A DNA stretch of 64,000 bases from an uncultured Dehalococcoidales bacterium (lineage in GTDB: Bacteria; Chloroflexota; Dehalococcoidia; GIF9; AB-539-J10). The notes under the pieces are model-generated. The model had not been told where the DNA came from. It made no database searches and was given only the letters and a program-made list of their open reading frames with translations. The stretch covers positions 6,715-70,714 of the forward strand of contig CAYTBB010000001.1 of the NCBI GenBank assembly GCA_964435965.1, read 5' to 3'. The position numbers were made by a program, and so were the translations under genes. Positions 3,976-61,619 of this stretch are shown piece by piece (within the stretch, counting starts at the first letter, position 1; every line of letters begins with the position of its first letter).

Positions 3976-5141
3976 AGAAAATAGCTATCTTAGGTTCAAC
4001 GGGTTCCGTAGGACAGCAAGCTCTGGGGGTGATATGTGCCCTTTCTGCTAGGTTTCGAGTGATAGCTTTAGCCGGGGGTGAAAATCTCAAGCTTCTGGAA
4101 AAGCAGATAGCCAAATTTCAACCTGACATGTTTTATTCCGCAGTCGAGCCTGACTTTACCTATAGAGGCGAATTCTTATCCATGGAACAAATAGCCAGCC
4201 ATCCAGACGTTGATCTGGTCATCGTAGCCACCTCAGGCAAAGCAGGGCTGTATCCTACTTTAGCAGCTCTAAAGGCAGGCAAAACAGTAGCTTTAGCCAA
4301 CAAGGAAGTATTGGTGATGGCAGGGGAAATTATCATTCGTGAGGCTAAAAGCTATCAAGCTCAAATTCTGCCTATTGATAGTGAGCTTAGTGCTATCTGG
4401 CAATGCTTGCAGGGGGAGGAAAATAAACCAAAAAGAATTTTTCTAACTGCTTCTGGTGGACCTTTCTACCACTATTCCCAGCCAGAATTAAGAAAAGTAA
4501 CGGTAGAGCAAGCTCTTCGTCACCCTATATGGAAAATGGGAAGCAAGATCACCATTGACTCGGCCACACTTCTGAATAAAGGATTAGAGGCTATTGAAGC
4601 TCATTGGCTTTTCGCTATTCCTTTTGAGAGCATTGAGATATTAATTCATCCACAAAGTATCATTCACTCCATGGTAGAGTTTATGGACGGTTCAATAAGA
4701 GCGCAGCTCAGCTTTCCTGATATGAGGTTGCCCATCCAATATGCCCTTTGTTACCCTGAGAGGTTGCTCAATTCAGAGCTACCACGCCTCAACTGGAGCA
4801 AAATTAAATCTCTAAACTTCGAGCCAGTAGAGCAAAACAGATTTCCTTGTCTTAAATTGGCGCTAGATGCGGGTAAGCAAGGAGGAACTTATCCCGCAGT
4901 GCTTTGTGCTGCCGATGAAGTGGCCGTAGGGCTTTTTCTTAACAAGCGTATAAGCTTTACTGATATAGCTAGAATAGCGCAAGAAACTTTGGAACAGCAT
5001 CGGGGCATTGCTCAGCCATCCTTGGAAGAAATTCTAGTTGCCGATGCTTGGGCAAGGGAATATGTTGAGCGTCTTTTCATTTGTCACCCTCACCTTATTC
5101 CTCTCCCTTCAAGGGAGAGGTTAGGTGAAGGAGGTCAGTGA
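3963..5141 (+). CDS. dxr: 1-deoxy-D-xylulose 5-phosphate reductoisomerase
   Basis: The NADPH-binding N-terminus ILGSTGSVGQQAL is present and Dxr-family similarity runs throughout. The last ~19 codons are encoded by a palindromic repeat (see findings). Confidence 0.93.
   Translation: MDSVKKIAILGSTGSVGQQALGVICALSARFRVIALAGGENLKLLEKQIAKFQPDMFYSAVEPDFTYRGEFLSMEQIASHPDVDLVIVATSGKAGLYPTLAALKAGKTVALANKEVLVMAGEIIIREAKSYQAQILPIDSELSAIWQCLQGEENKPKRIFLTASGGPFYHYSQPELRKVTVEQALRHPIWKMGSKITIDSATLLNKGLEAIEAHWLFAIPFESIEILIHPQSIIHSMVEFMDGSIRAQLSFPDMRLPIQYALCYPERLLNSELPRLNWSKIKSLNFEPVEQNRFPCLKLALDAGKQGGTYPAVLCAADEVAVGLFLNKRISFTDIARIAQETLEQHRGIAQPSLEEILVADAWAREYVERLFICHPHLIPLPSRERLGEGGQ
5084..5120. repeat. family-2 palindromic repeat TCACCCTCACCTTATTCCTCTCCCTTCAAGGGAGAGG
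   Basis: This 37-nt stretch matches 50071-50107 with 3-4 mismatches and contains the perfect palindrome CCTCTCCCTTCAAGGGAGAGG at 5100-5120. Related copies occur at 7489-7524 and 37595-37632. Confidence 0.55.
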
Positions 5142-11491: not shown

Positions 11492-13909
11492 TCAATCTCT
11501 TAAAGTAGCACCTAGTTCTTGATGTAATCTATCTACAATCCTCTGATGGGGTCTATTAACCTCTTCGTCGGTTAAAGTATGCTCAGGTGATTGATAAACA
11601 ATCCTTATAGCGAAGGATTTCTTGCCTTCAGGTATTTGCTCACCTCGATAAAAGTCAAAGAGCGTGACTTTCTTTACTAGCGGGAAGCTTCGGATTACAT
11701 CCTCCACCTGCTGATAGCTTACTTGCTTATCTATTACTAAGGCAATGTCTCTAGTTATGTTGGGAAACCGTGGGATAGGCTGATACTGCTTTACTTTGAT
11801 TGTTTTGCTCAGCAACTTCTCTATATCCATTTCAATAAGATAAACAGCATCAGAAAGCTCGAAGGCTTGTGCTACCTTGGGATGCAAGTTACCTACAATA
11901 CCCACTTTATCAGCGCCGATGATTATATTAGCTGCCCTTCCAGGTAATAGGCTTTCATCATCACTGGCCCCAAAGGTTGCTTCTAGTCCCAATTGGTTCA
12001 AAAGGTTCTCTACTACTCCCTTAGCATCAAAAAAATTGAGCTGCTCCTTATTACCGTGCCAGGACAATTCTGCCTCTGGGCCGCTAAGTGCAGCACAAAG
12101 CATTTCCTTTTCTTGTGGCAGCTCATTCCCTTGTGGCAAGAATATCTTGCCGATTTCAAATAATCTTATGCTCCCTTCCTCAACCCTTTGATTGTGTACC
12201 AAGGTAGTTAGCAAGCCAGGACGCAAAGTAGTACGCAAGTATTCCTGCTCCTTGGTCATAGGGTTAGCTACTTTCAAAGATGTAACTTTCAGCTTGAGCC
12301 TCGGAGAAATTTTTTGCAGCCTCTCTAAGCTAGTCAAAGAATAGGTCAGTATTTCTTGAAAACCGCAGCCGGTGAGAATATTTCCTAATCTTTGCTTGAG
12401 ATTGCTTCGCTGCACTCGCAATGACAACCTTGATTCCTGTTGAGGGAAGGGAGAGCTAAGCCTGGTAACAGGAACTTGGTCATAGCCGATAATGCGAACC
12501 ACCTCTTCTACAAGATCAGCAGAGCAGCTAATGTCGCTGCGCCAATAAGGAGCCACTACCAAGATTTGTGACGCTGAGTTGGCATGCTGACATTCAAAGC
12601 CCAAGGATTTTAATACTTTAAGAATCTTAGCTAATGGTACCTCTAAGCCTGAAAGTCGCTTCACCTCCTCAGCAGAGAGCAAGATGCCCTTTGGCTGTGA
12701 TTTCCCAGGATAAACATCTATTATGCTCTTAGCTGCCTTGCCGCCAGCCAGCTCCAAGAGCAATTGGGTAGCTCGCTTCAGTGGTAGCAGTGGTAAGTCA
12801 GGATTTAGCCCTTTATCGAAGCGAATAGAAGCCTCACTTTGCAAATTAAGGCAATGGCATCCTTGACGAATGATTGCTTGGTTGAAATTTGCTGACTCTA
12901 GGAGAATAGAAGTGGTTTTATCTGCAACCTCGGTATCCAATCCTCCCATAATTCCAGCAATAGCAACAGCCTTTTCTTTGTCAGCAATGACTAAAGTATC
13001 GGGGCTAAGAACACGCTCTATTCCATCAAGGGTGGTTATAGTTTCGCTATTTCTAGCCCGACGGACAATAATCTGTTTGCCTTCAAGTTCATGATAGTCA
13101 AAAGCATGGAGAGGCTGCCCATATTCCAGCATTACGTAATTGGTAACATCAACCACATTGTTAATAGGACGCATGCCATAGCTACTCAGGCGATACTGTA
13201 GCCAATTAGGAGAAGGGGCTATCTTAATCCCTATAATTAAGCTGGCACAGTACCTAGGACATAAACTTGGTTCAATTATGTCAACAGAGACAAAAGAATC
13301 TATCGGAGTCTCTGTTTCTTCATAATGAATCTCGGGCAAATGAAGTGCTTGCTCAGTAAGAGAGGCAATTTCTCTAGCAATGCCAATTATGGATAAGCAA
13401 TCTGGGCGATTGGGCGTTATATCTAAATCAAAAATAACATCGCCTAAATAGTCTCTAAGAGGCATACCTATAGGAGCTTCTGATGGTAATACCATGATGC
13501 CCCCGTGACTATCGGAGATCCCCAATTCCTTTTCAGAGCAAACCATGCCCTCAGAAAGAACGCCACGGATTTTAGCTGGCTTTAGCAAAATAGGTTTCCC
13601 AGTATGACCATCTATAAGTTGTGCTCCCACAGAGGCGAAAGGCACCTTCTGCCCGAGGCTAATGTTTGGGGCACCGCAAACCACAGTAACCTGCTGGGGG
13701 TCGAGATTAACAGTAGCTAGCCTTAGGCGATCTGCGTTGGGATGAGGATTTAAAGCCGTTACTTCTCCTACTACTACGTTGTTCCAGGTGCTGCCTGTAG
13801 TCTGTATGTCTTTGGCTTCCACGCCAGCCATAGTTAGCCTTCTAGCTAGCTCTTTAGGAGCAAGTTTGATGTCACTATAATCTTTAAGCCATTTAAGCGA
13901 AGCCTTCAT
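11492..13909 (-). CDS. pheT: phenylalanyl-tRNA synthetase beta subunit
   Basis: The protein is 805 aa and starts MKASLKWLKDYSDIKLAPKELARRLTMAGVE, with B3/4 and B5 domains and an FDX-ACB-like C-terminus. Confidence 0.93.
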   Translation of the reverse strand: MKASLKWLKDYSDIKLAPKELARRLTMAGVEAKDIQTTGSTWNNVVVGEVTALNPHPNADRLRLATVNLDPQQVTVVCGAPNISLGQKVPFASVGAQLIDGHTGKPILLKPAKIRGVLSEGMVCSEKELGISDSHGGIMVLPSEAPIGMPLRDYLGDVIFDLDITPNRPDCLSIIGIAREIASLTEQALHLPEIHYEETETPIDSFVSVDIIEPSLCPRYCASLIIGIKIAPSPNWLQYRLSSYGMRPINNVVDVTNYVMLEYGQPLHAFDYHELEGKQIIVRRARNSETITTLDGIERVLSPDTLVIADKEKAVAIAGIMGGLDTEVADKTTSILLESANFNQAIIRQGCHCLNLQSEASIRFDKGLNPDLPLLPLKRATQLLLELAGGKAAKSIIDVYPGKSQPKGILLSAEEVKRLSGLEVPLAKILKVLKSLGFECQHANSASQILVVAPYWRSDISCSADLVEEVVRIIGYDQVPVTRLSSPFPQQESRLSLRVQRSNLKQRLGNILTGCGFQEILTYSLTSLERLQKISPRLKLKVTSLKVANPMTKEQEYLRTTLRPGLLTTLVHNQRVEEGSIRLFEIGKIFLPQGNELPQEKEMLCAALSGPEAELSWHGNKEQLNFFDAKGVVENLLNQLGLEATFGASDDESLLPGRAANIIIGADKVGIVGNLHPKVAQAFELSDAVYLIEMDIEKLLSKTIKVKQYQPIPRFPNITRDIALVIDKQVSYQQVEDVIRSFPLVKKVTLFDFYRGEQIPEGKKSFAIRIVYQSPEHTLTDEEVNRPHQRIVDRLHQELGATLRD

Positions 13910-18414: not shown

Positions 18415-18487
18415 TGGGCGATACTGGATTTGAACCAGTGACCTCTGCGATGTCAACGCAGCGCTCTAACCGCTGAGCTAACCGCCC
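18415..18487 (-). tRNA. tRNA-Val (anticodon GAC)
   Basis: The reverse complement is GGGCGGTTAGCTCAGCGGTTAGAGCGCTGCGTTGACATCGCAGAGGTCACTGGTTCAAATCCAGTATCGCCCA, a complete cloverleaf with anticodon loop TTGACAT and no encoded CCA. Confidence 0.85.
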
Positions 18488-18552: not shown

Positions 18553-18728
18553 GTCATTCCACAACACCTACCTGTAGGCTCTGAACCCCTCACTCCTTTT
18601 CACTTCGTTCAGAGCTTCGGCTCACCAAGGTAAACTCCGCGAGGAATCTCGTAGCATTCAGACAGGCTCCGTGAAAAATCTTTACCCCTCGCTGCCTCTT
18701 TGCTTCGAGTGTTTCAGTTCAGAATGAT
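18553..18728. repeat. family-1 dispersed repeat, long form (copy D)
   Basis: This copy shares CCTACCTGTAGGCTCTGAACC...CCTCACTCCTTTTCACTTCGTTCAGAG...CGCGAGGAATCTCGTAGCATTCAGACAGGCTCCGTGAAAAATCT with copy A (34190-34340) and with the flanks of copy C. Its ends are the TIR-like GTCATTCC and CAGAATGATA. Confidence 0.6.
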
Positions 18729-20706: not shown

Positions 20707-20735
20707 GTCATTGCGAGTGAAGCGAAGCAATCCCC
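20707..20735. repeat. family-1 repeat head GTCATTGCGAGTGAAGCGAAGCAATCCCC (copy F) forming the 5' extension of the next ORF
   Basis: The motif GTCATTGCGAG...GCGAAGCAATC matches the copies at 25311, 41043 and 50834. Confidence 0.5.
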
Positions 20736-24783: not shown

Positions 24784-26091
24784 TTAACTCTTGAGCCCAG
24801 TTACAACCTCCTCTGGACTAGTAATTCTGCCTAGAATAGCGCTAGCGGCAGCTACTACAGGACTTGCCAAATAGACCTCGGACTGAGGGCTTCCCATTCT
24901 GCCAACAAAATTTCGGTTGGTGGTAGATAAACAGCGCTCACCAGCGGCTAAAACCCCCATGTGTCCACCAAGACAAGGCCCACAAGTAGGAGTGCTTACT
25001 ACAGCCCCAGCTTCTATAAAAGTTTCTATTAGCCCCTCTCTCAAAGCATCAAGATAAACCTTCTGCGAGCCTGGAATAATGATACATCTAATTTCTGGAT
25101 GTATTTGCCTTCCTTTGAGGAGTTTAGCCGCTACTCTCAAATCACCAAGGCGACCATTGGTGCAACCGCCGATAACCACCTGATCTAGTTTTATGTTACC
25201 CACCTGGCTTACAGGTTTAGTATTGGAGGGAAGATGAGGGAAAGCCACCTGAGGCTCAATTTTGGACACCTCATATTCTCTGATTTTGGCATATTCAGCA
25301 TCTTTACATTGAGATTGCTTCGTCGCTGACGCTCCTCGCAATGACGTAGGGGATGGCTCGCAATGACGGAGGGACACGTGCGCTTTAATATATTCCTCGG
25401 CCTTAGCATCTACACAAAAAATGCCAGCCTTAGCTCCAGCTTCGATGGCCATATTTGCCATAGTAAAGCGCCCATCCATTGATAGCTCATCAACTGCTTC
25501 ACCCCTAAACTCCATAACCGAGTAAAGCGCTCCATCTACACCAATATCTCCGATGGTGTAAAGAATAATATCCTTGCCACTAACCCATTTGGGCAGCTTC
25601 CCATGGTAAATAAACTTAATCGTTTGTGGCACCTTCATCCATATTTCGCCGGTAGCCATAGCCACAGCAATGTCAGTTGAACCCATGCCTGTGGCAAAAG
25701 CTCCCAGGGCACCATAAGTACAAGTATGGGAATCAGCGCCAACAATGACTTGCCCAGACAAGACCAAGCCTTGCTCAGGCAAGAGCACATGCTCAATCCC
25801 CATTCGCCCTACCTCAAAGTAAATCAGTCCCTGTTCCTTAGCGAACTCACGCATCAGCTTTGCTTGTCCAGCAGATGCTATATCTTTATTGGGGCAAAAA
25901 TGATCGGGAACCATGACTACCTTTGCAGGGTCAAACACCTTTGATATTCCAAGCCGTTGAAACTCTTTTATGGCTAAGGGGGCAGTTATATCATTGGCTA
26001 AAACTAAATCAACTCTGACATTTATAAACTCGCCAGGCTTAACTTCCTTCTTGCCACTATGAGCTGCTAAGATCTTCTCAGCTAAAGTCAA
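24784..26091 (-). CDS. leuC: 3-isopropylmalate dehydratase large subunit (archaeal type) carrying an in-frame repeat-derived insertion
   Basis: The 435-aa protein has an aconitase-family catalytic domain with Cys ligands (GGCTNG, TCGPCLG). The segment [25 protein letters not shown] is translated from repeat copy G. Confidence 0.9.
25311..25368. repeat. family-1 repeat (copy G): two tandem GTCATTGCGAG heads plus a GCGACGAAGCAATCTC tail, inside leuC
   Basis: The plus strand reads GAGATTGCTTCGTCGCTGACGCTCCTCGCAATGACGTAGGGGATGGCTCGCAATGACGG, which matches copy H almost base for base. Confidence 0.6.
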
Positions 26092-34189: not shown

Positions 34190-34340
34190 TTACTTGTAGG
34201 CCCTGAGCCTTTCGCTTCCTGTCATTCTGAATTCTTCACTCCTTGTCATTCTGAGGGAGGGAAGCGACCGAAGAATCTCATTGCGCTCAGGACAGGCTCA
34301 GCGAAAAATCTAGAGCCCCTTCACTTCATTCAGGGTGACA
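34190..34340. repeat. family-1 dispersed repeat, long form (copy A) with two TGTCATTCTGA heads and a CAGGGTGACA terminal inverted repeat
   Basis: The copy reads ...CTTGTAGGCCCTGAGCC...TGTCATTCTGAATTCTTCACTCCTTGTCATTCTGAGGGAGGGAAGCGACCGAAGAATCTCATTGCGCTCAGGACAGGCTCAGCGAAAAATCTAGAGCCCCTTCACTTCATTCAGGGTGACA. It is homologous to copies B, C, D and E. Confidence 0.65.
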
Positions 34341-36093: not shown

Positions 36094-36168
36094 TTCACTT
36101 TAGTGTCATTCTGAGAGAGCGTGGCGACCGAAGAATCTTAGAGACACTTCGCTTCGCTCAGGGTGACA
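36094..36168. repeat. family-1 repeat, short form (copy B)
   Basis: The copy reads TTCACTTTAGTGTCATTCTGAGAGAGCGTGGCGACCGAAGAATCTTAGAGACACTTCGCTTCGCTCAGGGTGACA. Its TIRs are TGTCATTCTGAG and CTCAGGGTGACA. Confidence 0.65.
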
Positions 36169-37495: not shown

Positions 37496-37594
37496 TCATT
37501 AGTAAATAGCTAATTTTGAACCTGTTTTAGGATTTAAACTTAAATGTTTTGATATAAGTTCGAAGGTAGCCTGAAGGGGCAAAGCTCCTTCAAA

Positions 37595-37632
37595 CCCGAT
37601 CCCTCCCCCTCTCCTTTGAAGGAAAGGGGGAC
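37595..37632 (+). promoter_or_regulatory. strong hairpin CCCCCTCTCCTT-tg-AAGGAAAGGGGG upstream of purD (family-2-like)
   Basis: The stem is 12 bp with one mismatch. It lies ~100 nt after the preceding stop and ~45 nt before the purD start. No U-tract follows it. Confidence 0.3.
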
Positions 37633-40758: not shown

Positions 40759-41727
40759 TTGGGAATGTCTGTTTTATTACAAACTGACTTACCTCTTCCC
40801 TTATTCCGTCGCGGCAAGGTAAGAGATGTCTATGACTTAGATGACAAACTTCTTATAGTGGCTACTGACCGCATCTCTGCTTTTGATTTTGTCCTGCCTT
40901 GTGGCGTCCCCAACAAAGGGAAGGTTCTTAATCAACTCTCAGCCTTTTGGTTTGAGAAAACAGCCCATATTGTGCCCAATCATCTCATCAAGGTAATTGA
41001 TAGCTTGGATGCGTTTGAGGATGTCATCGCGAGGGCTGAAAGCCCGAAGCAATCTCAAGAGAAGAAAGATTCCTCGCTTACGCTCGGAACAAGCCTTATT
41101 GGCCGCTCCATGCTTGTGGCTAAAGCTGAGCGTATTCCTGTAGAATGTGTTGTTCGAGGTTACTTATCTGGCTCAGCTTGGGCAGAGTATAAGAAAAGTG
41201 GTACTGCTGGCGATATTCGCTTACCAGCCGGGATGAAGGAAAGTCAAGAATTGTCTCACCCTATCTTTACTCCTACTACCAAAGGAGAGGCAGAGCATGA
41301 CCGTCCTTTAACTAATCAAGATATAAGGAACCTTGAGGAAATATCATTGCAGGCGGGGCGAAGCAAGCTCAATTTGATTAAGGAATTGGAGGAGAAAAGC
41401 TTGCTCATTTACCGCTACGCACGAGATTATGCTAAAAACAAGGGCATCATGATTGCCGACACCAAGTTTGAGTTCGGCTTTGTCAATGGTGAACTAACGC
41501 TTATTGACGAGCTATTAACGCCGGACTCGAGTCGCTTTTGGGATGCTAGCCAATACGAAGTTGGTCATTCACAACCCAGCTTTGACAAACAACCAGTTCG
41601 TGATTGGCTTTCAGCCTCAGGATGGAACAAAGAGCCACCGGCGCCTATGTTGCCATTGGAGGTAATTGAGGCTACCACACAACGGTATAACAGAATCTAT
41701 CAGTTGTTTACTGGAAAACGTGTCTAG
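40759..41727 (+). CDS. purC: SAICAR synthetase (long, eukaryote-like form) carrying an in-frame repeat-derived insertion
   Basis: The 322-aa protein contains GKVRDVYD...VATDRISAFD...ADTKFEFG...LTPDSSRFW. The segment DVIARAESPKQSQEKK is encoded by a family-1 repeat. Confidence 0.9.
   Translation: MGMSVLLQTDLPLPLFRRGKVRDVYDLDDKLLIVATDRISAFDFVLPCGVPNKGKVLNQLSAFWFEKTAHIVPNHLIKVIDSLDAFEDVIARAESPKQSQEKKDSSLTLGTSLIGRSMLVAKAERIPVECVVRGYLSGSAWAEYKKSGTAGDIRLPAGMKESQELSHPIFTPTTKGEAEHDRPLTNQDIRNLEEISLQAGRSKLNLIKELEEKSLLIYRYARDYAKNKGIMIADTKFEFGFVNGELTLIDELLTPDSSRFWDASQYEVGHSQPSFDKQPVRDWLSASGWNKEPPAPMLPLEVIEATTQRYNRIYQLFTGKRV
41043..41076. repeat. family-1 repeat copy inside purC (GTCATCGCGAGGGCTGAAAGCCCGAAGCAATCTC)
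   Basis: The head GTCAT(T/C)GCGAGG and tail CGAAGCAATCTC match copies G and H. Confidence 0.55.
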
Positions 41728-41805: not shown

Positions 41806-42459
41806 GTGCAAAATCTCTCAGCTATAAAGAGTATACAGATGGAATGGAGCAACGCAATCAGTGTCATAATTGCCATTTTGGTGATGATTGGTTTGCCTTT
41901 GGCTCTCCGTAAACAAAGGAAGGTTGGTCCCCAGAGGAAAGAGGAGCTTTGCCAGCACCTTCAAAAAATGGGAGTAAGGGCATACCTGGCGCAAATCGCA
42001 GATAACCGCGAGAAGATAGGTCAGAGACGCTCTTCGGGAGAGAAGTCTATGGGAATTATTGAGTTAAAGGATAGAAATATAGATTCCATAAATGTTATTG
42101 GCGTAACAAGCCAATATGGAACCCACTATTTCATTAATTATTTGGTGAGAAACCCGAATATGACGGAAAAACGAAAGTTGAAAAAGACGAGCTTGGTTAG
42201 AAGGAAAAGTGCACTCCTTTGGGGCAAAGTAGTAGGTATCGAATGGAAAGGAGATGAATCCTTAGCAAAGAGCCTCAATTTTGACTATGGGCTAGAAAAT
42301 AAATTATTGCACTCTGAGCTTAAAGATCCGGGGGGAGGCATCTGGATTTTTCCTGAACCCAAGCACGAATATGTCCGGATAAGGACTGCTTATTCTCTTC
42401 CCTCCCCAGAGATATTTGAGACAATAGGCATCATAGCTAGGTATGTTAAGTCATGGTGA
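41806..42459 (+). CDS. hypothetical membrane-anchored protein (single N-terminal TM helix), AT-rich
   Basis: The 217-aa protein has the TM segment ISVIIAILVMIGLPLAL and no recognisable family. Confidence 0.55.
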   Translation: MQNLSAIKSIQMEWSNAISVIIAILVMIGLPLALRKQRKVGPQRKEELCQHLQKMGVRAYLAQIADNREKIGQRRSSGEKSMGIIELKDRNIDSINVIGVTSQYGTHYFINYLVRNPNMTEKRKLKKTSLVRRKSALLWGKVVGIEWKGDESLAKSLNFDYGLENKLLHSELKDPGGGIWIFPEPKHEYVRIRTAYSLPSPEIFETIGIIARYVKSW

Positions 42460-50060: not shown

Positions 50061-50070
50061 GATAATCTTT

Positions 50071-50107
50071 TCACCCTCACCTTAATCCTCCCCCGTCAAG
50101 GGAGAGG
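50071..50107. repeat. family-2 palindromic repeat TCACCCTCACCTTAATCCTCCCCCGTCAAGGGAGAGG
   Basis: This is a near-identical copy of 5084-5120. It lies in the hisG-hisD intergenic spacer and is followed (50114-50127) by a family-1 head fragment GGCTCGCAATGACA. Confidence 0.5.
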
Positions 50108-50141
50108 AGAATTGGCTCGCAATGACAAAAGGGAGAGTTAA

Positions 50142-51569
50142 TCATGAGAGCCCTCTGCGTAATGTTTGAATAAGAAATTCAATCTTCTCCTTTTTACCAG
50201 GGAAGTCAAGGCTGCCTTTGTTTCCGATTAGACAAGCAGTGGATTTGAAAAGCACATCGATAACTTTTAAGTCATGTTGCGCCAGTGTTTTCCCAGTTTG
50301 GGTATTGTCAATGAGCAAATCGGCATCCTCGGGCAGGAAAACTTCACTCGCTCCCCAAGTTGGGATTACCTTGCACGGGTTGATATAGTTATCTCGAAGA
50401 TACTTATCAGCGATGTTTACGTATTCTGAAGCTACTCTTAATAGAGTAAGTTTACCACTTTGAATAAGCGATCTTAAGTCAGCAACGTCGGTTATAGGCA
50501 TATCTTGACTCACTGCAGCCACAATTTTAACCATACCAAAGCCCAGATCAAGCAACTCCTTCACTGGGCTTGAGGGGAAACGATAGAGGTGTTCCAGCAA
50601 CCAATCCTTACCGGTTATGGCTAAATCAAAATTGCCATTAGCCACTTGAAGAGGCATATCCTGAGGTCTGATTACCTTAATGCCAAGCCAATCTAAATCG
50701 GAGGAGGGGCGACGGTTCAATACTTCCTCTGTATACCCCTGAATGTTAAGCCCACTTCGCTTCAAAAACTGCGCCGTAGGTGGTTGCTGATGTCCATCAG
50801 GCAAAGCTAGCTTTATTTCCTTCGCTTGCCAATGAGATTGCTTCGTCGCTTCACTCCTCGCAATGACCGTACTAGGGCTTGTAACAACATTATTTCGGCT
50901 TGCAATAACATTGCTGAAACAATTCAATATCTGGCTCAGATCTTTATTCTCCAAGCTTTCTCGGTTAGCGATTAGAAAGGCTGTGACCGGGAGTAACTTT
51001 ATTAGGGGAACCAAACTTTGCTCCTTTATCTCATTTTCATTCCTTGCCCACAGTATTGCCAGATCAGCACTATCTGGGGGATAAATTTCAGCAGCTCCCC
51101 ACACCGGGAAAATCTTAAAGGCCTTCATCCTGAGATTTAAGGCAAAAACTTGAGCTAAATTAGGGTACTCGCTTACTATGCGCCAGTTATCCCGCTTGGC
51201 TAACAATCCGTCAAGATTGGATATCCCTGCTTGGTAGCTGGCCACCGCATATACACCACCCTCACCGTAATTTAGACTTGATATTTTTACTAAGGCGCTC
51301 GCTGGATACCTCGCCAAAAGTTCCTCAACCCAATCCAAGCCACATATTCCCAGGTCATAATTGCCTATGGCTACTTGCATGGGAATATCTTTCTCCTGAA
51401 ATACCTTGGCCGAAAGCCAAGAGAACCTTCTCGATTGAAGGCGATATCGCCTCGTCTTATTGCTGTAGCCTTTAATGCCCACCCCTGCCCCTTTAAGCAA
51501 GTTAGCCGTAGTCAGTAAGAACCTACCTTTAGGCAAGGCGAGTTTGATATGGCACGGTTGGTATTCCAC
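50142..51569 (-). CDS. hisG: tandem double-domain ATP phosphoribosyltransferase (two short-form HisG domains fused through a repeat-derived linker)
   Basis: The N-half reads IKLALPKGRFL...KDIPMQVAIGNYDLGICGLDW...DSADLAILWAR. The C-half reads IKLALPDGHQQ...QDMPLQVANGNFDLAITGKDW...DADLLIDNTQTGKTLAQHDLKV. The PRPP-loop TGxT motif is kept only in the C-half. Confidence 0.85.
   Translation of the reverse strand: MEYQPCHIKLALPKGRFLLTTANLLKGAGVGIKGYSNKTRRYRLQSRRFSWLSAKVFQEKDIPMQVAIGNYDLGICGLDWVEELLARYPASALVKISSLNYGEGGVYAVASYQAGISNLDGLLAKRDNWRIVSEYPNLAQVFALNLRMKAFKIFPVWGAAEIYPPDSADLAILWARNENEIKEQSLVPLIKLLPVTAFLIANRESLENKDLSQILNCFSNVIASRNNVVTSPSTVIARSEATKQSHWQAKEIKLALPDGHQQPPTAQFLKRSGLNIQGYTEEVLNRRPSSDLDWLGIKVIRPQDMPLQVANGNFDLAITGKDWLLEHLYRFPSSPVKELLDLGFGMVKIVAAVSQDMPITDVADLRSLIQSGKLTLLRVASEYVNIADKYLRDNYINPCKVIPTWGASEVFLPEDADLLIDNTQTGKTLAQHDLKVIDVLFKSTACLIGNKGSLDFPGKKEKIEFLIQTLRRGLS
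50834..50868. repeat. family-1 repeat (copy H) forming the inter-domain linker of hisG
   Basis: The plus strand reads GAGATTGCTTCGTCGCTTCACTCCTCGCAATGACC. On the coding (minus) strand it is followed by two degenerate head-like units, aatgttattgcaagc and aataatgttgttacaagc. Confidence 0.6.
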
Positions 51570-52896: not shown

Positions 52897-52948
52897 CCTA
52901 CCTGTCATTCTGAGCGTAGCGAAGAATCTCATACCGCTCAGGGTGACA
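52897..52948. repeat. family-1 repeat, minimal short form (copy C)
   Basis: The copy reads CCTACCTGTCATTCTGAGCGTAGCGAAGAATCTCATACCGCTCAGGGTGACA. Its TIRs TGTCATTCTGAGCG and CGCTCAGGGTGACA are perfect apart from the central TT/GG. Confidence 0.65.
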
Positions 52949-57340: not shown

Positions 57341-58480
57341 TCAACTATATTTGCTTAGAATAGCTTTGAAGGAATCTCTGACAAAAGCTAGCTGTTCTTT
57401 ATCAGCGGCAAAGGTAGAGAGTTTAAAAGCTTTTGTCAGACCCGGCTGCAGCCCCCAAATGCCTCTGCCCTTCAGCTCCTTGTACAGGAAATATCCCCTC
57501 TCTCGGACATTCTTGGAGATGTCATAGAGCATCGGAGCTTCAAAGTGCAGTAAGTCATGTCTATGCGGTTTCTCTCCTAGCTGCTTAAAACCCAATTTCT
57601 CAAGTTCAGTGGAAAGCCATTGCGCCTTTAATACTTGCTCAGCCCAATGGTTAACCCTTTCTTTCACATAAGGGAAGGAAGCCATAAGCGTTACCAGCGG
57701 GACGCCCCTCAAGGTACAGCCAAGAAGCTCAACCTCTTTATTGCTATATGCCTCAGATTTCCTCAATACTATTTCTTCCCACTTCTTTTTCATTCCCAAA
57801 ACTCCACAAGGCCCGGCAGAAGCCATGCTTTTGTGTCCACTACCAACAATGAAGTCAGCTCCAACATCGTTCATTTTGATCGGCATTCTGCCCACCGCAT
57901 ATGCACCATTAAGGATATAAGGGATACCATATTCTTGAGCAATTTTCCCTAGCTTTGTGGCATCGGAAAGATTTCCATAATTGCCATCGGGGTAAGTTAA
58001 TAAAATTAGTTTAGGATTATTCTTTTTTATAACTGGTATGTAATCGTTAACATCAATCCTGAATTCTGGATAACCGGAGTGAGGCACTTCGATAACATTC
58101 AACCCTACCCTTTCAGCGGCAACAATTGTAGTGTAATGCCTGCTACTATCGACAATGATTGAATCACCTGGCTTGGCCAAAGAATGCATTACCATGTATT
58201 TAGCTTCTCTTGCCCCATGAGTTATGGTAGCAACATCGCAACCCAAAAATTGGGGTAAAAGTTCCCGCACAAACTCTCGGACAGGAGGATTTGTTATCTC
58301 GCACAAGCTGCCAAGGCAAAAATCACACACGGAATACCCATCTCCAAATTCCACTAATGCTTCCCTAGCAGCATCAGTGAGAATGCCTCCCGTTTGAAGA
58401 GGCATAAGATTTATAAGGCCTTTGTGCAATCTTTGTAATGCACCAAGTTTCTGTAATGCTTTATTTGTTGGCTGCTTCAT
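57341..58480 (-). CDS. Sep-tRNA:Cys-tRNA synthase (SepCysS), PLP-dependent
   Basis: The protein is 379 aa with a PLP-lysine region (IVGSGHKSMASAGPCGVLG) and a size typical of SepCysS. It overlaps SepRS by 4 nt. Confidence 0.75.
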   Translation of the reverse strand: MKQPTNKALQKLGALQRLHKGLINLMPLQTGGILTDAAREALVEFGDGYSVCDFCLGSLCEITNPPVREFVRELLPQFLGCDVATITHGAREAKYMVMHSLAKPGDSIIVDSSRHYTTIVAAERVGLNVIEVPHSGYPEFRIDVNDYIPVIKKNNPKLILLTYPDGNYGNLSDATKLGKIAQEYGIPYILNGAYAVGRMPIKMNDVGADFIVGSGHKSMASAGPCGVLGMKKKWEEIVLRKSEAYSNKEVELLGCTLRGVPLVTLMASFPYVKERVNHWAEQVLKAQWLSTELEKLGFKQLGEKPHRHDLLHFEAPMLYDISKNVRERGYFLYKELKGRGIWGLQPGLTKAFKLSTFAADKEQLAFVRDSFKAILSKYS

Positions 58481-60000
58481 GAAGTTTTCCTTTTTAGTGC
58501 CTGCGATTTTATGGTTACAAATACAGCACCACCAACTCCTATCTTCTTCTGCTGCCCTTCTATGTACTCCTGAATAGCCTCTGGAATTCGCAGATTAAGG
58601 TCAGAGAGATGCTTTATTGTTTTCACCTGATAAGTTAAGTTTTCATCGCTGCTTTCTATTAAAGCTGCTGCCCCCATTGCTATAGCACGCATGTAGTTTA
58701 TACCTGAATGTACTCCTGAGGGGACAACGTCACTATAGATGCTACCATTAGCTACGCAAATCTCGTTAAAACCAGCGGGACCAATCAACCTCTTACCTGT
58801 CTCCGTTTCTACAACTTTTACCTGTATGGAGTCATCCTCCCAGGCTAAAAACTCACATGGGGCAATCTCATCTTTATACTTTCGGGCAGTTTCCTCGATT
58901 GCCTTGGCTATCTTTTTTCCTTTGGCAGTCTTGGGACTTGTTATAGAGGTAATGGACTTAGCTATATCTTCATCACTATATTCAGCTATGGAAAATTGGG
59001 GATATGCCAGCTTCCTTATATCATCCACTTCATATAGAATCATCGCTAGCCGCTCAACCCCCAAGCCAGCATTAAATACGGGATACCGGATGTTAAAGTT
59101 TGCTAAGGATATAGGAGAGTACATGCCAATATCGGCAACCTCGAGCCAATTCCCTTTGTAGTTAATGAAAGCCTCTTGCTCCTGGCCGGGCGCATAATAC
59201 TTAGATGTTGCTATCTTTGTCTCAAATTTGATATCTACAAAGCCATATTGCCGTAAGACGTCTTTGGTTATTTCTCTTCCGGCATCCAAGGACATTTTGG
59301 GGGCCATTACTACGACTGATGCTGAATGATGAATCCGCAAATGGTGAGCATCTTCCCTTTGCTCATTGCGGTATCGAGGCCCTACCGAAAATAAGGCCAG
59401 CGGAAATTTAGCTTTGTCCTGCAACGCTGCTAAAGTGTGAAACCATGTAGCTGTCATATGGCTTCTTAAAGTCTTATTAGAAGGTAACGGTCGTAGCTTT
59501 TTTAGCTCAGGAAAAACCTTGTCTAGAAGCCCTGTAGCTTGGTTGTCAGTGATATCCAGTCCAGCAATGAACTCCTCAATGAGGTTATCTGCCTCGATTT
59601 CTCCCTTCTTATACCTTCTAAGAATTGACCTCAATTTCTCACTTTCAATTTCTCCTGCTATCTCCTTTATTTGAGCTATTTTTTGGGCACTCAGCCCTAT
59701 CTCAGGGCGAGGTAATTCAGCCAAATAAAAAACTCTGTCAAGGATAAGCCGAGCCTCCGGGCCATACTGCTTAGAGACATCATAATCGGGCAAAATTGTA
59801 AGATTCTCAACTTCATCAAAGCCAAGATTTAACAGGATTTCCCTCGATTGTTGAACCAATTGGCGCACAAGGTGAGGTTTCCCTTTCCTTTCTAGAGAGA
59901 TTTTGGTACCCTTTGGAATAAGTTTTCCTGTTGATACCCAAGCCTCGGTAAAATTCTTTTTTGCTTGCGACTTTATTTCGTTTAAATCAAACGTTGCCAT
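58477..60000 (-). CDS. O-phosphoseryl-tRNA(Cys) synthetase (SepRS)
   Basis: The protein is 507 aa with class II PheRS-like motifs and SepRS-specific blocks (DRVFYLAELPRPEIG, KTLRSHMTATWF, NAGLGVERLAMIL, APCEFLAWED). Confidence 0.85.
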   Translation of the reverse strand: MATFDLNEIKSQAKKNFTEAWVSTGKLIPKGTKISLERKGKPHLVRQLVQQSREILLNLGFDEVENLTILPDYDVSKQYGPEARLILDRVFYLAELPRPEIGLSAQKIAQIKEIAGEIESEKLRSILRRYKKGEIEADNLIEEFIAGLDITDNQATGLLDKVFPELKKLRPLPSNKTLRSHMTATWFHTLAALQDKAKFPLALFSVGPRYRNEQREDAHHLRIHHSASVVVMAPKMSLDAGREITKDVLRQYGFVDIKFETKIATSKYYAPGQEQEAFINYKGNWLEVADIGMYSPISLANFNIRYPVFNAGLGVERLAMILYEVDDIRKLAYPQFSIAEYSDEDIAKSITSITSPKTAKGKKIAKAIEETARKYKDEIAPCEFLAWEDDSIQVKVVETETGKRLIGPAGFNEICVANGSIYSDVVPSGVHSGINYMRAIAMGAAALIESSDENLTYQVKTIKHLSDLNLRIPEAIQEYIEGQQKKIGVGGAVFVTIKSQALKRKTS

Positions 60001-61495: not shown

Positions 61496-61619
61496 GCTTC
61501 CTGGCAACGGCCTATTTTCCCAAAGGGTTGCCCCTCAAGTATCGTCTGCGCTGGAGCGTTTCACTTCCGTATTCGGGATGGGAACGGGTGGTTCCACTCC
61601 GCTCTAGTCACCAAGAAGC
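61496..61619 (-). rRNA. rrf: 5S ribosomal RNA (orphan; no 23S/16S in window)
   Basis: The reverse complement reads GCTTCTTGGTGACTAGAGCGGAGTGGAACCACCCGTTCCCATCCCGAATACGGAAGTGAAACGCTCCAGCGCAGACGATACTTGAGGGGCAACCC...GCCGTTGCCAGGAAGC. It contains the universal 5S core CCCATCCCGAA.ACGGAAGTGAAACGC, and its 5' and 3' ends pair to form helix I. Confidence 0.85.

Follow-up and report, generated by a model that had tools for sequence, protein, structure and literature searches.

How does a dispersed palindromic repeat come to lie, in frame, inside purC, the gene for a long-form SAICAR synthetase, and by what process does it change there? The question is raised by a stretch of 64 kb from the genome of an uncultured Dehalococcoidia bacterium, the part of this genome that was seen and hereafter the window, whose purC carries a short string of a repeat family that also occurs in non-coding DNA and in unrelated genes. 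The purC stretch is probably a non-autonomous hairpin repeat of the type known as repetitive extragenic palindrome (REP) or Rickettsia palindromic element (RPE), acting as a hot spot of templated replacement. The window purC (WIN) was compared with orthologue DNAs (L-numbers) and homologous proteins (P-numbers); counts from the genome and metagenome scans are lower bounds.

The host gene (40765-41727, plus strand) starts with an ATG at 40765, the open reading frame (ORF) extending to a TTG at 40759, and is intact, with 322 amino acids (aa) from TTG 40759 and 320 aa from ATG 40765. Its product matches Pfam SAICAR_synt (PF01259, E=8.8e-73) over profile positions 2-230 of 233, i.e. full-length, and among solved structures yeast Ade1 (1a48, E=1e-72) is its closest relative, in agreement with the long, eukaryote-like synthetase named in a preliminary description of this DNA. 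Directly upstream lie purD, purE and purB, in an order (purD-purE-purB-purC) that recurs in orthologous contigs, and the closest database proteins come from metagenome-assembled genomes of Dehalococcoidia/Chloroflexota. Profile, solved structure and purine-operon context together identify the predicted product as a long-form, Ade1-type PurC.

The 34-nt string GTCATCGCGAGGGCTGAAAGCCCGAAGCAATCTC occurs once in the window, at 41023-41056 (plus strand), and is translated in the purC frame as (D)VIARAESPKQS(Q). It forms part of a complete palindromic element of 72 nt and 24 codons (41023-41094), consisting of two arms: VIARAESPKQSQEKKDSSLTLGTS. The left arm (41022-41056, plus strand) is an A-type unit, read VIARAESPKQS, with a T-GTC tag at 41022-41025, an outer stem ATCGC/GCAAT that differs by one mismatch from the consensus ATTGC, a GA//GAA internal loop, the inner hairpin GGGCT-GAA-AGCCC at 41033-41045 and the tail CTC. 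Between the arms lies the 11-nt spacer AAGAGAAGAAA (41057-41067, plus strand; codons Q-E-K-K), in whose codons positions 1 and 2 vary among orthologues and position 3 is unchanged. The right arm is an inverted unit (41068-41094, minus strand; 41066-41093 minus in the structural scan), read on the plus strand as DSSLTLGTS. On the minus strand it consists of GCTTGTTCC-GA-GC-GTAA-GC-GA-GGAATC, with the stem GTTCC/GGAAT and a decayed tag; it is similar to GAGATTGCTTCG..CTCGCAATGAC, the canonical inverted partner in other genomes, and is conserved among orthologues. The preliminary description had placed an in-frame repeat string at 41043-41110. Its position in frame and in an intact ORF holds, the start was set 20 nt too far to the right (the string lies at 41023-41056), and the interval covers merely the end of the unit, the spacer and the second arm of an element that is larger than described.

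A second, independent insertion is located further 3' in purC (41342-41370, plus strand). It consists of one A-type unit in a decayed state, TATCATTGCAGGCGGGGCGAAGCAAGCTC, which is read in frame 2 as (I)SLQAGRSKL and adds a net 27 nt; the string in the window is ISLQAGRSKLNL. Orthologue L005 possesses TGTCATTGCAAGCGGGGCGAAGCAATCTC at this site, one mismatch from the consensus, and L004 and most orthologues of 75-80% identity are without the 27-nt insert. Neither the two-arm structure nor this second purC unit had been noticed earlier, and the same applies to the pheT copy and to the one in a hisG linker, both presented below.

Both inserts stand out against PurCs from elsewhere. HMMER alignments leave gaps in Ade1 (1a48) of 11 residues at query residues 101-111, close to the earlier estimate of a region some 12 residues longer than yeast Ade1, and of 9 residues at the second insert. 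The segment matching WIN residues 68-122 comprises 54 aa in the window versus a modal 35-36 aa in 109 diverse long-form PurCs, and the second-insert segment 54 aa versus a family mode of 45. Syntenic Dehalococcoidia orthologues of 59-62% identity have a short, unrelated loop, e.g. DTLDSLKQYFPPKTTLPDY. The purC residues are an insertion because outgroup PurCs are without them; the preliminary description had held that the same residues in homologues lacking the repeat would speak against it, and these residues are missing from homologues beyond the clade. Judged by these comparisons, the purC stretch is a repeat insertion in the DNA for two length-variable, predicted loops of PurC. Length hypervariability suggests that both loops lie at the protein surface.

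The fit to the reading frame is a survivorship effect and not a property of the element. Unit lengths (28, 34, 35 and 57 nt) are not consistently multiples of three and all three forward frames are used (VIAR..KQS, SLRG..RSNL and HCE..AIS), so that frame-breaking copies have been purged; the consensus itself is open in five of six frames. The purging of frame-disrupting insertions had been offered earlier side by side with a length- and frame-compatible element, and it is the former that stands.

Comparison with a repeat consensus assigns the 34-mer to a dispersed family, as the preliminary description had supposed. The pattern TCATYGCGAG-N4-30-GAAGCAATC has 5 matches in the window versus 0.00 expected (100 shuffles), and GTCATTGCGAG with at most one mismatch has 8 versus 0.71 expected. 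The structural scan yields the unit plan gtc-[5 nt]-GAG-[variable]-CGA(A)-[5 nt complement]-ctc, that is, a YGTC tag, an ATTGC/GCAAT stem, a GA//GAA internal loop (GA//GA in some units) and a variable inner hairpin. Five-base stems covary across subfamilies, as ATTGC/GCAAT, ATTCT/AGAAT, ACCCT/AGGGT and GTTCC/GGAAT. Among 161 units from other genomes GTC is preceded by T in 84 and by C in 55 (139 T or C). The inner segment forms a perfect stem of at least 5 bp in 21 of 113 distinct units versus 1.6 expected, and the commonest inner loops are GNA triloops, which are typical of stable DNA hairpins.

Exact outer arms were found in at least 120 stretches, with one genome counted per species. Carriers belong to Chloroflexota, Sporomusa, Proteobacteria, Patescibacteria, Planctomycetota, Omnitrophota, Atribacterota, Bacteroidota (including cultured Flavobacterium, Mucilaginibacter and Chryseobacterium) and others, well over ten phyla altogether. 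In most genome loci an inverted partner is located 8-50 nt from the unit. BLAST against plasmids detected unannotated copies on cyanobacterial, methanotroph and Halomonas plasmids, and no annotated copy there. At the gathering threshold, Rfam recognizes a 5S rRNA and two tRNAs in the whole window and no repeat family, and a permissive Rfam scan of the canonical dimer returned merely sub-threshold matches to generic hairpins (miRNA precursors); no curated RNA family fits the unit. A literature search by exact sequence or peptide retrieved no relevant report.

At loop 1, the site of the 72-nt element, 80 syntenic metagenomic orthologues form a graded series with at least six repeat-derived alleles. 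These comprise an A-type unit with right arm; an ATTCT-type unit (L147, TGTCATTCTGAACGAAGTGAAGAATCTC) read VILNEVKNL; A-type units with a swapped inner hairpin of equal length (GGAACGAAGTGAC in L132, TCCCGATAAGATCGGGA in L136); a half-unit followed by a full unit (L003, L126, L133, L135, L138); nested units (L002, L163); and a frame-3 copy read HCEAQSAETIS (L170). Unrelated palindromes occupy the loop in L169, where, as in L153 and L159, a different perfect palindrome, AAGCTTTCAGCTG...CAGCTGAAAGCTT, is present. An extra small palindrome, TCCGACTCTGTCGGA (SDSVG), directly precedes the ATTCT-type unit in L140, L142, L151, L155, L166 and L171. Among the best 120 proteins, 107 show the KQS-type A-unit peptide pattern, which the variants P0013 and P0066 escape, 7 contain the VIL-type unit and 23 the second insert. 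The distant homologue P0224 has another repeat peptide (PAFAGMT) in loop 1, which here measures 81 aa and contains EIPAFAGMTKENAGMTKGD, which we take to be the reverse-frame peptide of the GTCATTCCCGC..GCGGGAATC (dRS3-like, CGTC-1) repeat; P0224 looks like an independent strike on loop 1 by another repeat family. By the evidence of these alleles, loop 1 is a permissive site that has been struck repeatedly. A 'length-neutral overwrite' once considered for L001 was dropped, the allele being explained more simply as a unit of the ATTCT/ATCCT type that is older and has decayed in L005.

The element is the slowest stretch of purC at third codon positions. In WIN and six orthologues (68-76% nt identity), 9 of 11 third positions are invariant inside the unit versus 61 of 300 elsewhere (p=3.6e-5), a difference that persists for codons of invariant amino acids only (4/6 versus 27/175, p=0.008), and the 12 best of 281 sliding windows all fall inside the element. 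For the outer arms, all 13 A-type carriers taken together give 4/6 versus 19/276 (p=4.6e-4), and the right half of the left arm, GAAGCAATCTC, is 100% unchanged in the 13 A-type orthologues. Nine lineages retain the inner hairpin GGGCTGAAAGCCC, which was found only in purC copies among the DNA examined.

The purC site is still changing at strain level. Proteins P0013 and P0011 differ solely in a 20-residue block. The purC genes of L002 and L206 have zero substitutions outside the element; inside the resident unit, 8 nt in one are replaced by 68 nt in the other, bounded by 18 and 8 shared nt, and in the 68-nt block of L002 a B-type arm is joined by a full A unit and one more module. Between L209 and L206/L207, which come from different samples, 3,990 nt were aligned, and all 39 differing columns are found in a single 80-nt patch that spans the element with its spacer and reaches 15 nt into the upstream flank. 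The L209 patch matches the allele of a lineage diverged by about 10% (L003/L126). Purifying selection as the sole cause of the third-position conservation was considered and is weakened by these replacements of patches between strains. In this patch (purC nt 249-328, L209 versus L206), leaving aside the swapped inner hairpin, the substitutions in flank and spacer are 11/11 transitions, 10 of them from GC (L206) to AT (L209). This bias fits the import of a diverged allele or a deamination-type hypermutation of exposed single-stranded DNA.

For the preferred explanation, the templated replacement at a resident repeat, the following course is proposed. The resident hairpin would make its site a hot spot, where breaks are repaired or gene conversion takes place; the replacement would be copied from other purC alleles or from other copies of the family, with the shared outer arms providing the homology; and selection would then eliminate the outcomes that break the frame. 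Templated replacement would account for inner hairpins being exchanged at equal length, for composites that are nested or contain half-units and for the invariant outer arms, as well as for isogenic contigs that differ only at the element. The same composite architectures recur in leuC of the window and in other phyla. None of the 60 ORFs in the window, all of them housekeeping, encodes a transposase, and no gene family recurs beside the units in 120 loci, in which 2,818 clustered ORFs yielded only generic ABC ATPases and similar. Long-range L...R pairs of units enclose unrelated genes, and no transposase is shared between these loci. An apparent 'UvrA enrichment' near the units was rejected as an artefact of the ABC-ATPase cluster. 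Copies of GAGGGCTGAAAGCCCGAAG or of the 68-nt block of L002 outside purC, if found, would support gene conversion.

Several observations weigh against this explanation. The folding energy of the purC unit is no better than that of shuffles (z -0.7 as DNA, -1.3 as RNA), so that the case for a hairpin rests on the covariation across copies. The ATTCT-type allele displays no excess of third-position conservation (p=0.1). Since GGGCTGAAAGCCC is confined to purC, ectopic conversion alone cannot explain its conservation in nine lineages. The 80-nt patch could derive from ordinary inter-strain recombination or local hypermutation not triggered by the element. The alleles are interleaved in a simple neighbour-joining tree, which carries no support values. 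Translation of the insert codons into extra loop residues is a prediction from the intact ORFs of more than 100 orthologues. As evidence on loop exposure the AlphaFold2 model (34-sequence alignment) is unusable, with a mean confidence (pLDDT) of 51.6 and values below 50 over residues 1-123.

Classical transposition is the most serious competitor of templated replacement, although an unlikely one. REPIN-like dimers (paired REPs in inverted orientation) would be moved as single-stranded DNA by a trans-acting HUH/Y1 transposase encoded elsewhere, RAYT-like (REP-associated tyrosine transposase) or IS200/IS605-like, and the purC alleles would stem from insertions that recurred in or beside an existing hairpin. 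The GNA triloops, typical of stable DNA hairpins, would suit such a process, as would the inverted dimers that are the usual form in other genomes and the nested copy within an otherwise identical strain. In the units, moreover, an unpaired and conserved 5' tag precedes a hairpin with covarying stem, as in REP-RAYT systems (PMC3733652). However, the 64-kb window contains no transposase, no gene family recurs beside the units in 120 loci, and CGTC-tagged REPs have been reported without a dedicated transposase (PMC3733652). The fresh event in L002 is a replacement of 8 by 68 nt between shared arm sequences and not a clean insertion, and the patch of L209 takes in flanks specific to purC. Less probable again is a functional DNA or mRNA element, e.g. 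a site for protein binding, RNase action or stability, or a translational pause between domains, kept by selection with the peptide as a by-product. It would account for the top third-position conservation in the gene next to freely varying spacer amino acids, for an inner hairpin that nine lineages keep and for which no donor was seen elsewhere, and for the in-gene A-type units of the window, which all follow the direction of transcription. Against it, close relatives have very different alleles or none at the site, so that purC does not need the element; the ATTCT-type allele decays like ordinary coding sequence, orthologues show no compensatory changes in situ, and neither the folding energy nor an Rfam match lends it support.

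The two remaining explanations concern the nature of the insert itself. A native adaptive loop, ancestral or selected, whose likeness to the repeat is coincidence or convergence, could invoke the peptide VIARAESPKQSQ, nearly invariant in about 100 orthologues of 75-97% identity. It is nevertheless highly improbable, because the family of the 34-nt string occurs in non-coding DNA and unrelated genes with 0 chance matches expected, the inserted residues are missing from outgroups and yeast Ade1, and the unit is read in other frames at other sites. The least credible of all is a mis-assembly of metagenomic reads that spliced the repeat into purC. Short dispersed repeats can cause chimeric joins, and L002 departs from its near-identical relative downstream of purC. 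Yet the element is found in frame in more than 100 independently assembled orthologues (ENA, JGI, NCBI, Logan) with intact ORF and conserved synteny, and its inner hairpin is unique to purC.

Further copies in the window extend the pattern to other genes. The pheT copy (12398-12425, minus strand) is a 28-nt A-type unit read in frame as SLRVQRSNL; compared with the solved structure 2rhs it adds about 4 aa. The leuC copy (25311-25367, minus strand) combines a half-unit with a full A-type unit, in frame, and adds about 8 aa relative to 4nqy. An A-type unit read VIARSEATKQS lies at 50834-50867 (minus strand), in frame between tandem HisG-like halves. All in-gene A-type units of the window are oriented along transcription, and with in-frame units in pheT, leuC, the hisG-hisG linker and purC (three units) the systematic phenomenon suspected in the preliminary description is borne out. 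A further A-type unit (20707-20734, plus strand) is found between rtcB and a nitroreductase gene, either in intergenic DNA or at the very 5' end of the latter gene. Sister subfamilies make up an intergenic composite at 34230-34340 (plus strand), in which an ATTCT/AGAAT unit and an inverted ACCCT-type arm flank a middle module, and similar composites are located at 36105-36168 and 52904-52947.

The ORF that contains the HisG-like halves spans 475 codons (50142-51569, minus strand); its halves start with IKLALPKGRF... and IKLALPDGHQ..., with no stop between them, and the linker is made up of a decayed half-unit (NVIASRNN) and the full A-type unit. Two neighbouring hisG paralogues may have become fused through the repeat; alternatively, the repeat may conceal where the second really starts. 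Another dispersed palindromic repeat, TTGTCACCCTCACCTTAWTCCTCYCCCKTCAAGGGAGAGG, is present at 5081-5120 and 50068-50107 and, in a weaker form, at 37589-37628. One copy is situated at the 3' end of dxr, and one between hisD and hisG, adjoining an A-type half-unit CTCGCAATGAC at 50116-50126. The window contains a lone 5S rRNA gene (61499-61615, minus strand) and no 16S or 23S rRNA. Its tRNA genes are found at 1144-1217 and 18415-18487, the latter adjoining a repeat cluster at 18580-18700. At 57341-60000 (minus strand) a 507-aa class-II tRNA-synthetase-like ORF (tRNA-synt_2d) is located beside a SepSecS/aminotransferase-like ORF, a pair that looks like SepRS and SepCysS of tRNA-dependent cysteine synthesis, which would be unusual for bacteria. 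The gene 3' of purC (ORF 41806-42459, plus strand) is conserved at 205-217 aa, with orthologues of about 205 aa in L003-L005, and has no Pfam match. In L005 purS sits between purC and this ORF, a place at which purS is absent in the window.

These inserts matter beyond purC. They extend the occurrence of selfish DNA within genes that encode proteins, best known from Rickettsia, to free-living uncultured Chloroflexota and to a repeat core common to many phyla, and the natural series at one site, with empty, filled, swapped, nested and duplicated alleles and with isogenic pairs, makes the mechanism of spread and turnover testable. For annotation, VIARSEATKQS, SLRGA..RSNL, HCE..EAIS and VILNEVKNL in metagenomic proteins should be regarded as repeat-derived peptides and not as motifs; such peptides inflate apparent protein diversity and can fuse adjacent ORFs, as in the hisG pair. 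A rather doubtful extension would take GTCATTGCGAG..CGAAGCAATCTC and its covarying sisters as an undescribed class of Y-GTC-tagged, GA-bulged repeats in many phyla, transposase-free, spread and held uniform by break repair or gene conversion that the hairpin triggers and other copies template, and creating, as a by-product, hypervariable in-frame cassettes in permissive loops of essential enzymes, in this case the sole differences between strains that are otherwise clonal.

Among known systems, intragenic palindromic repeats in frame are established for the RPEs of Rickettsia and for REPs of several species (PMC3733652, PMC10969869). RPEs are in-frame palindromic repeats of about 100-150 bp in unrelated Rickettsia housekeeping genes (Ogata et al. 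2000, via PMC10969869, PMC3733652). Like them, the purC element lies in frame in a housekeeping gene, adds a predicted peptide that is tolerated and is missing from orthologues elsewhere. In contrast to RPEs, units of the purC family measure 28-57 nt (72 nt for the purC dimer), use three frames, share a core in well over ten phyla and, at purC, occupy a site that is hypervariable between near-identical strains. The supplements of PMC3733652 contain no string that matches the unit consensus; RPE-1 to RPE-10 were compared by size and host only, and differ in both.

Bacterial miniature transposable elements with inverted repeats (MITEs) that make in-frame fusions, such as ERIC, Nezha and the Coxiella QMITE (PMC10969869, PMC5896051), are likewise small non-coding mobile repeats found inside ORFs without breaking them. 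The purC-family units are far shorter than typical MITEs and present neither the signature of terminal inverted repeats with target-site duplication nor a related insertion sequence; filled and empty sites, when compared, gave no target-site duplication. With GTAG REPs and the REPIN-RAYT system the unit shares the short tagged hairpin, the usually inverted pairs, the high copy number and the non-autonomous state. However, its tag is YGTC(A) and not GTAG, no RAYT (TnpA_REP, Y1) is present in the window or beside units in 120 loci, and its core is conserved across phyla, whereas GTAG REPs are usually species-specific.

The nearest described relatives of the purC unit are the CGTC/TGTC-tagged REPs, a superfamily that counts Neisseria dRS3 as well as RPE-4 and RPE-6 of Rickettsia among its members (Di Nocera et al. 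2013, PMC3733652) and has been reported in Proteobacteria, Chlorobi, Bacteroidetes, Spirochaetes and Thermotogae (PMC3733652). Both have an unpaired YGTC end tag, inverted dimers with no linked transposase, heterodimers of subfamilies and occasional intragenic copies. CGTC families, in which the tag can also be TGTC or CCTC, possess perfect stems of 8-9 bp, loops of 4-5 nt and a CCA tail (PMC3733652); the stem of the purC unit also starts with A-T and T-A, but it pairs over 5 bp only and continues with a GA//GAA loop and a second, variable stem, with an inner segment of 5-30 nt, a CTC tail and a host from Chloroflexota. The kind of event seen in purC is already known from Rickettsia, and the strain-level hot-spot behaviour and the cross-phylum core are the parts worth following.

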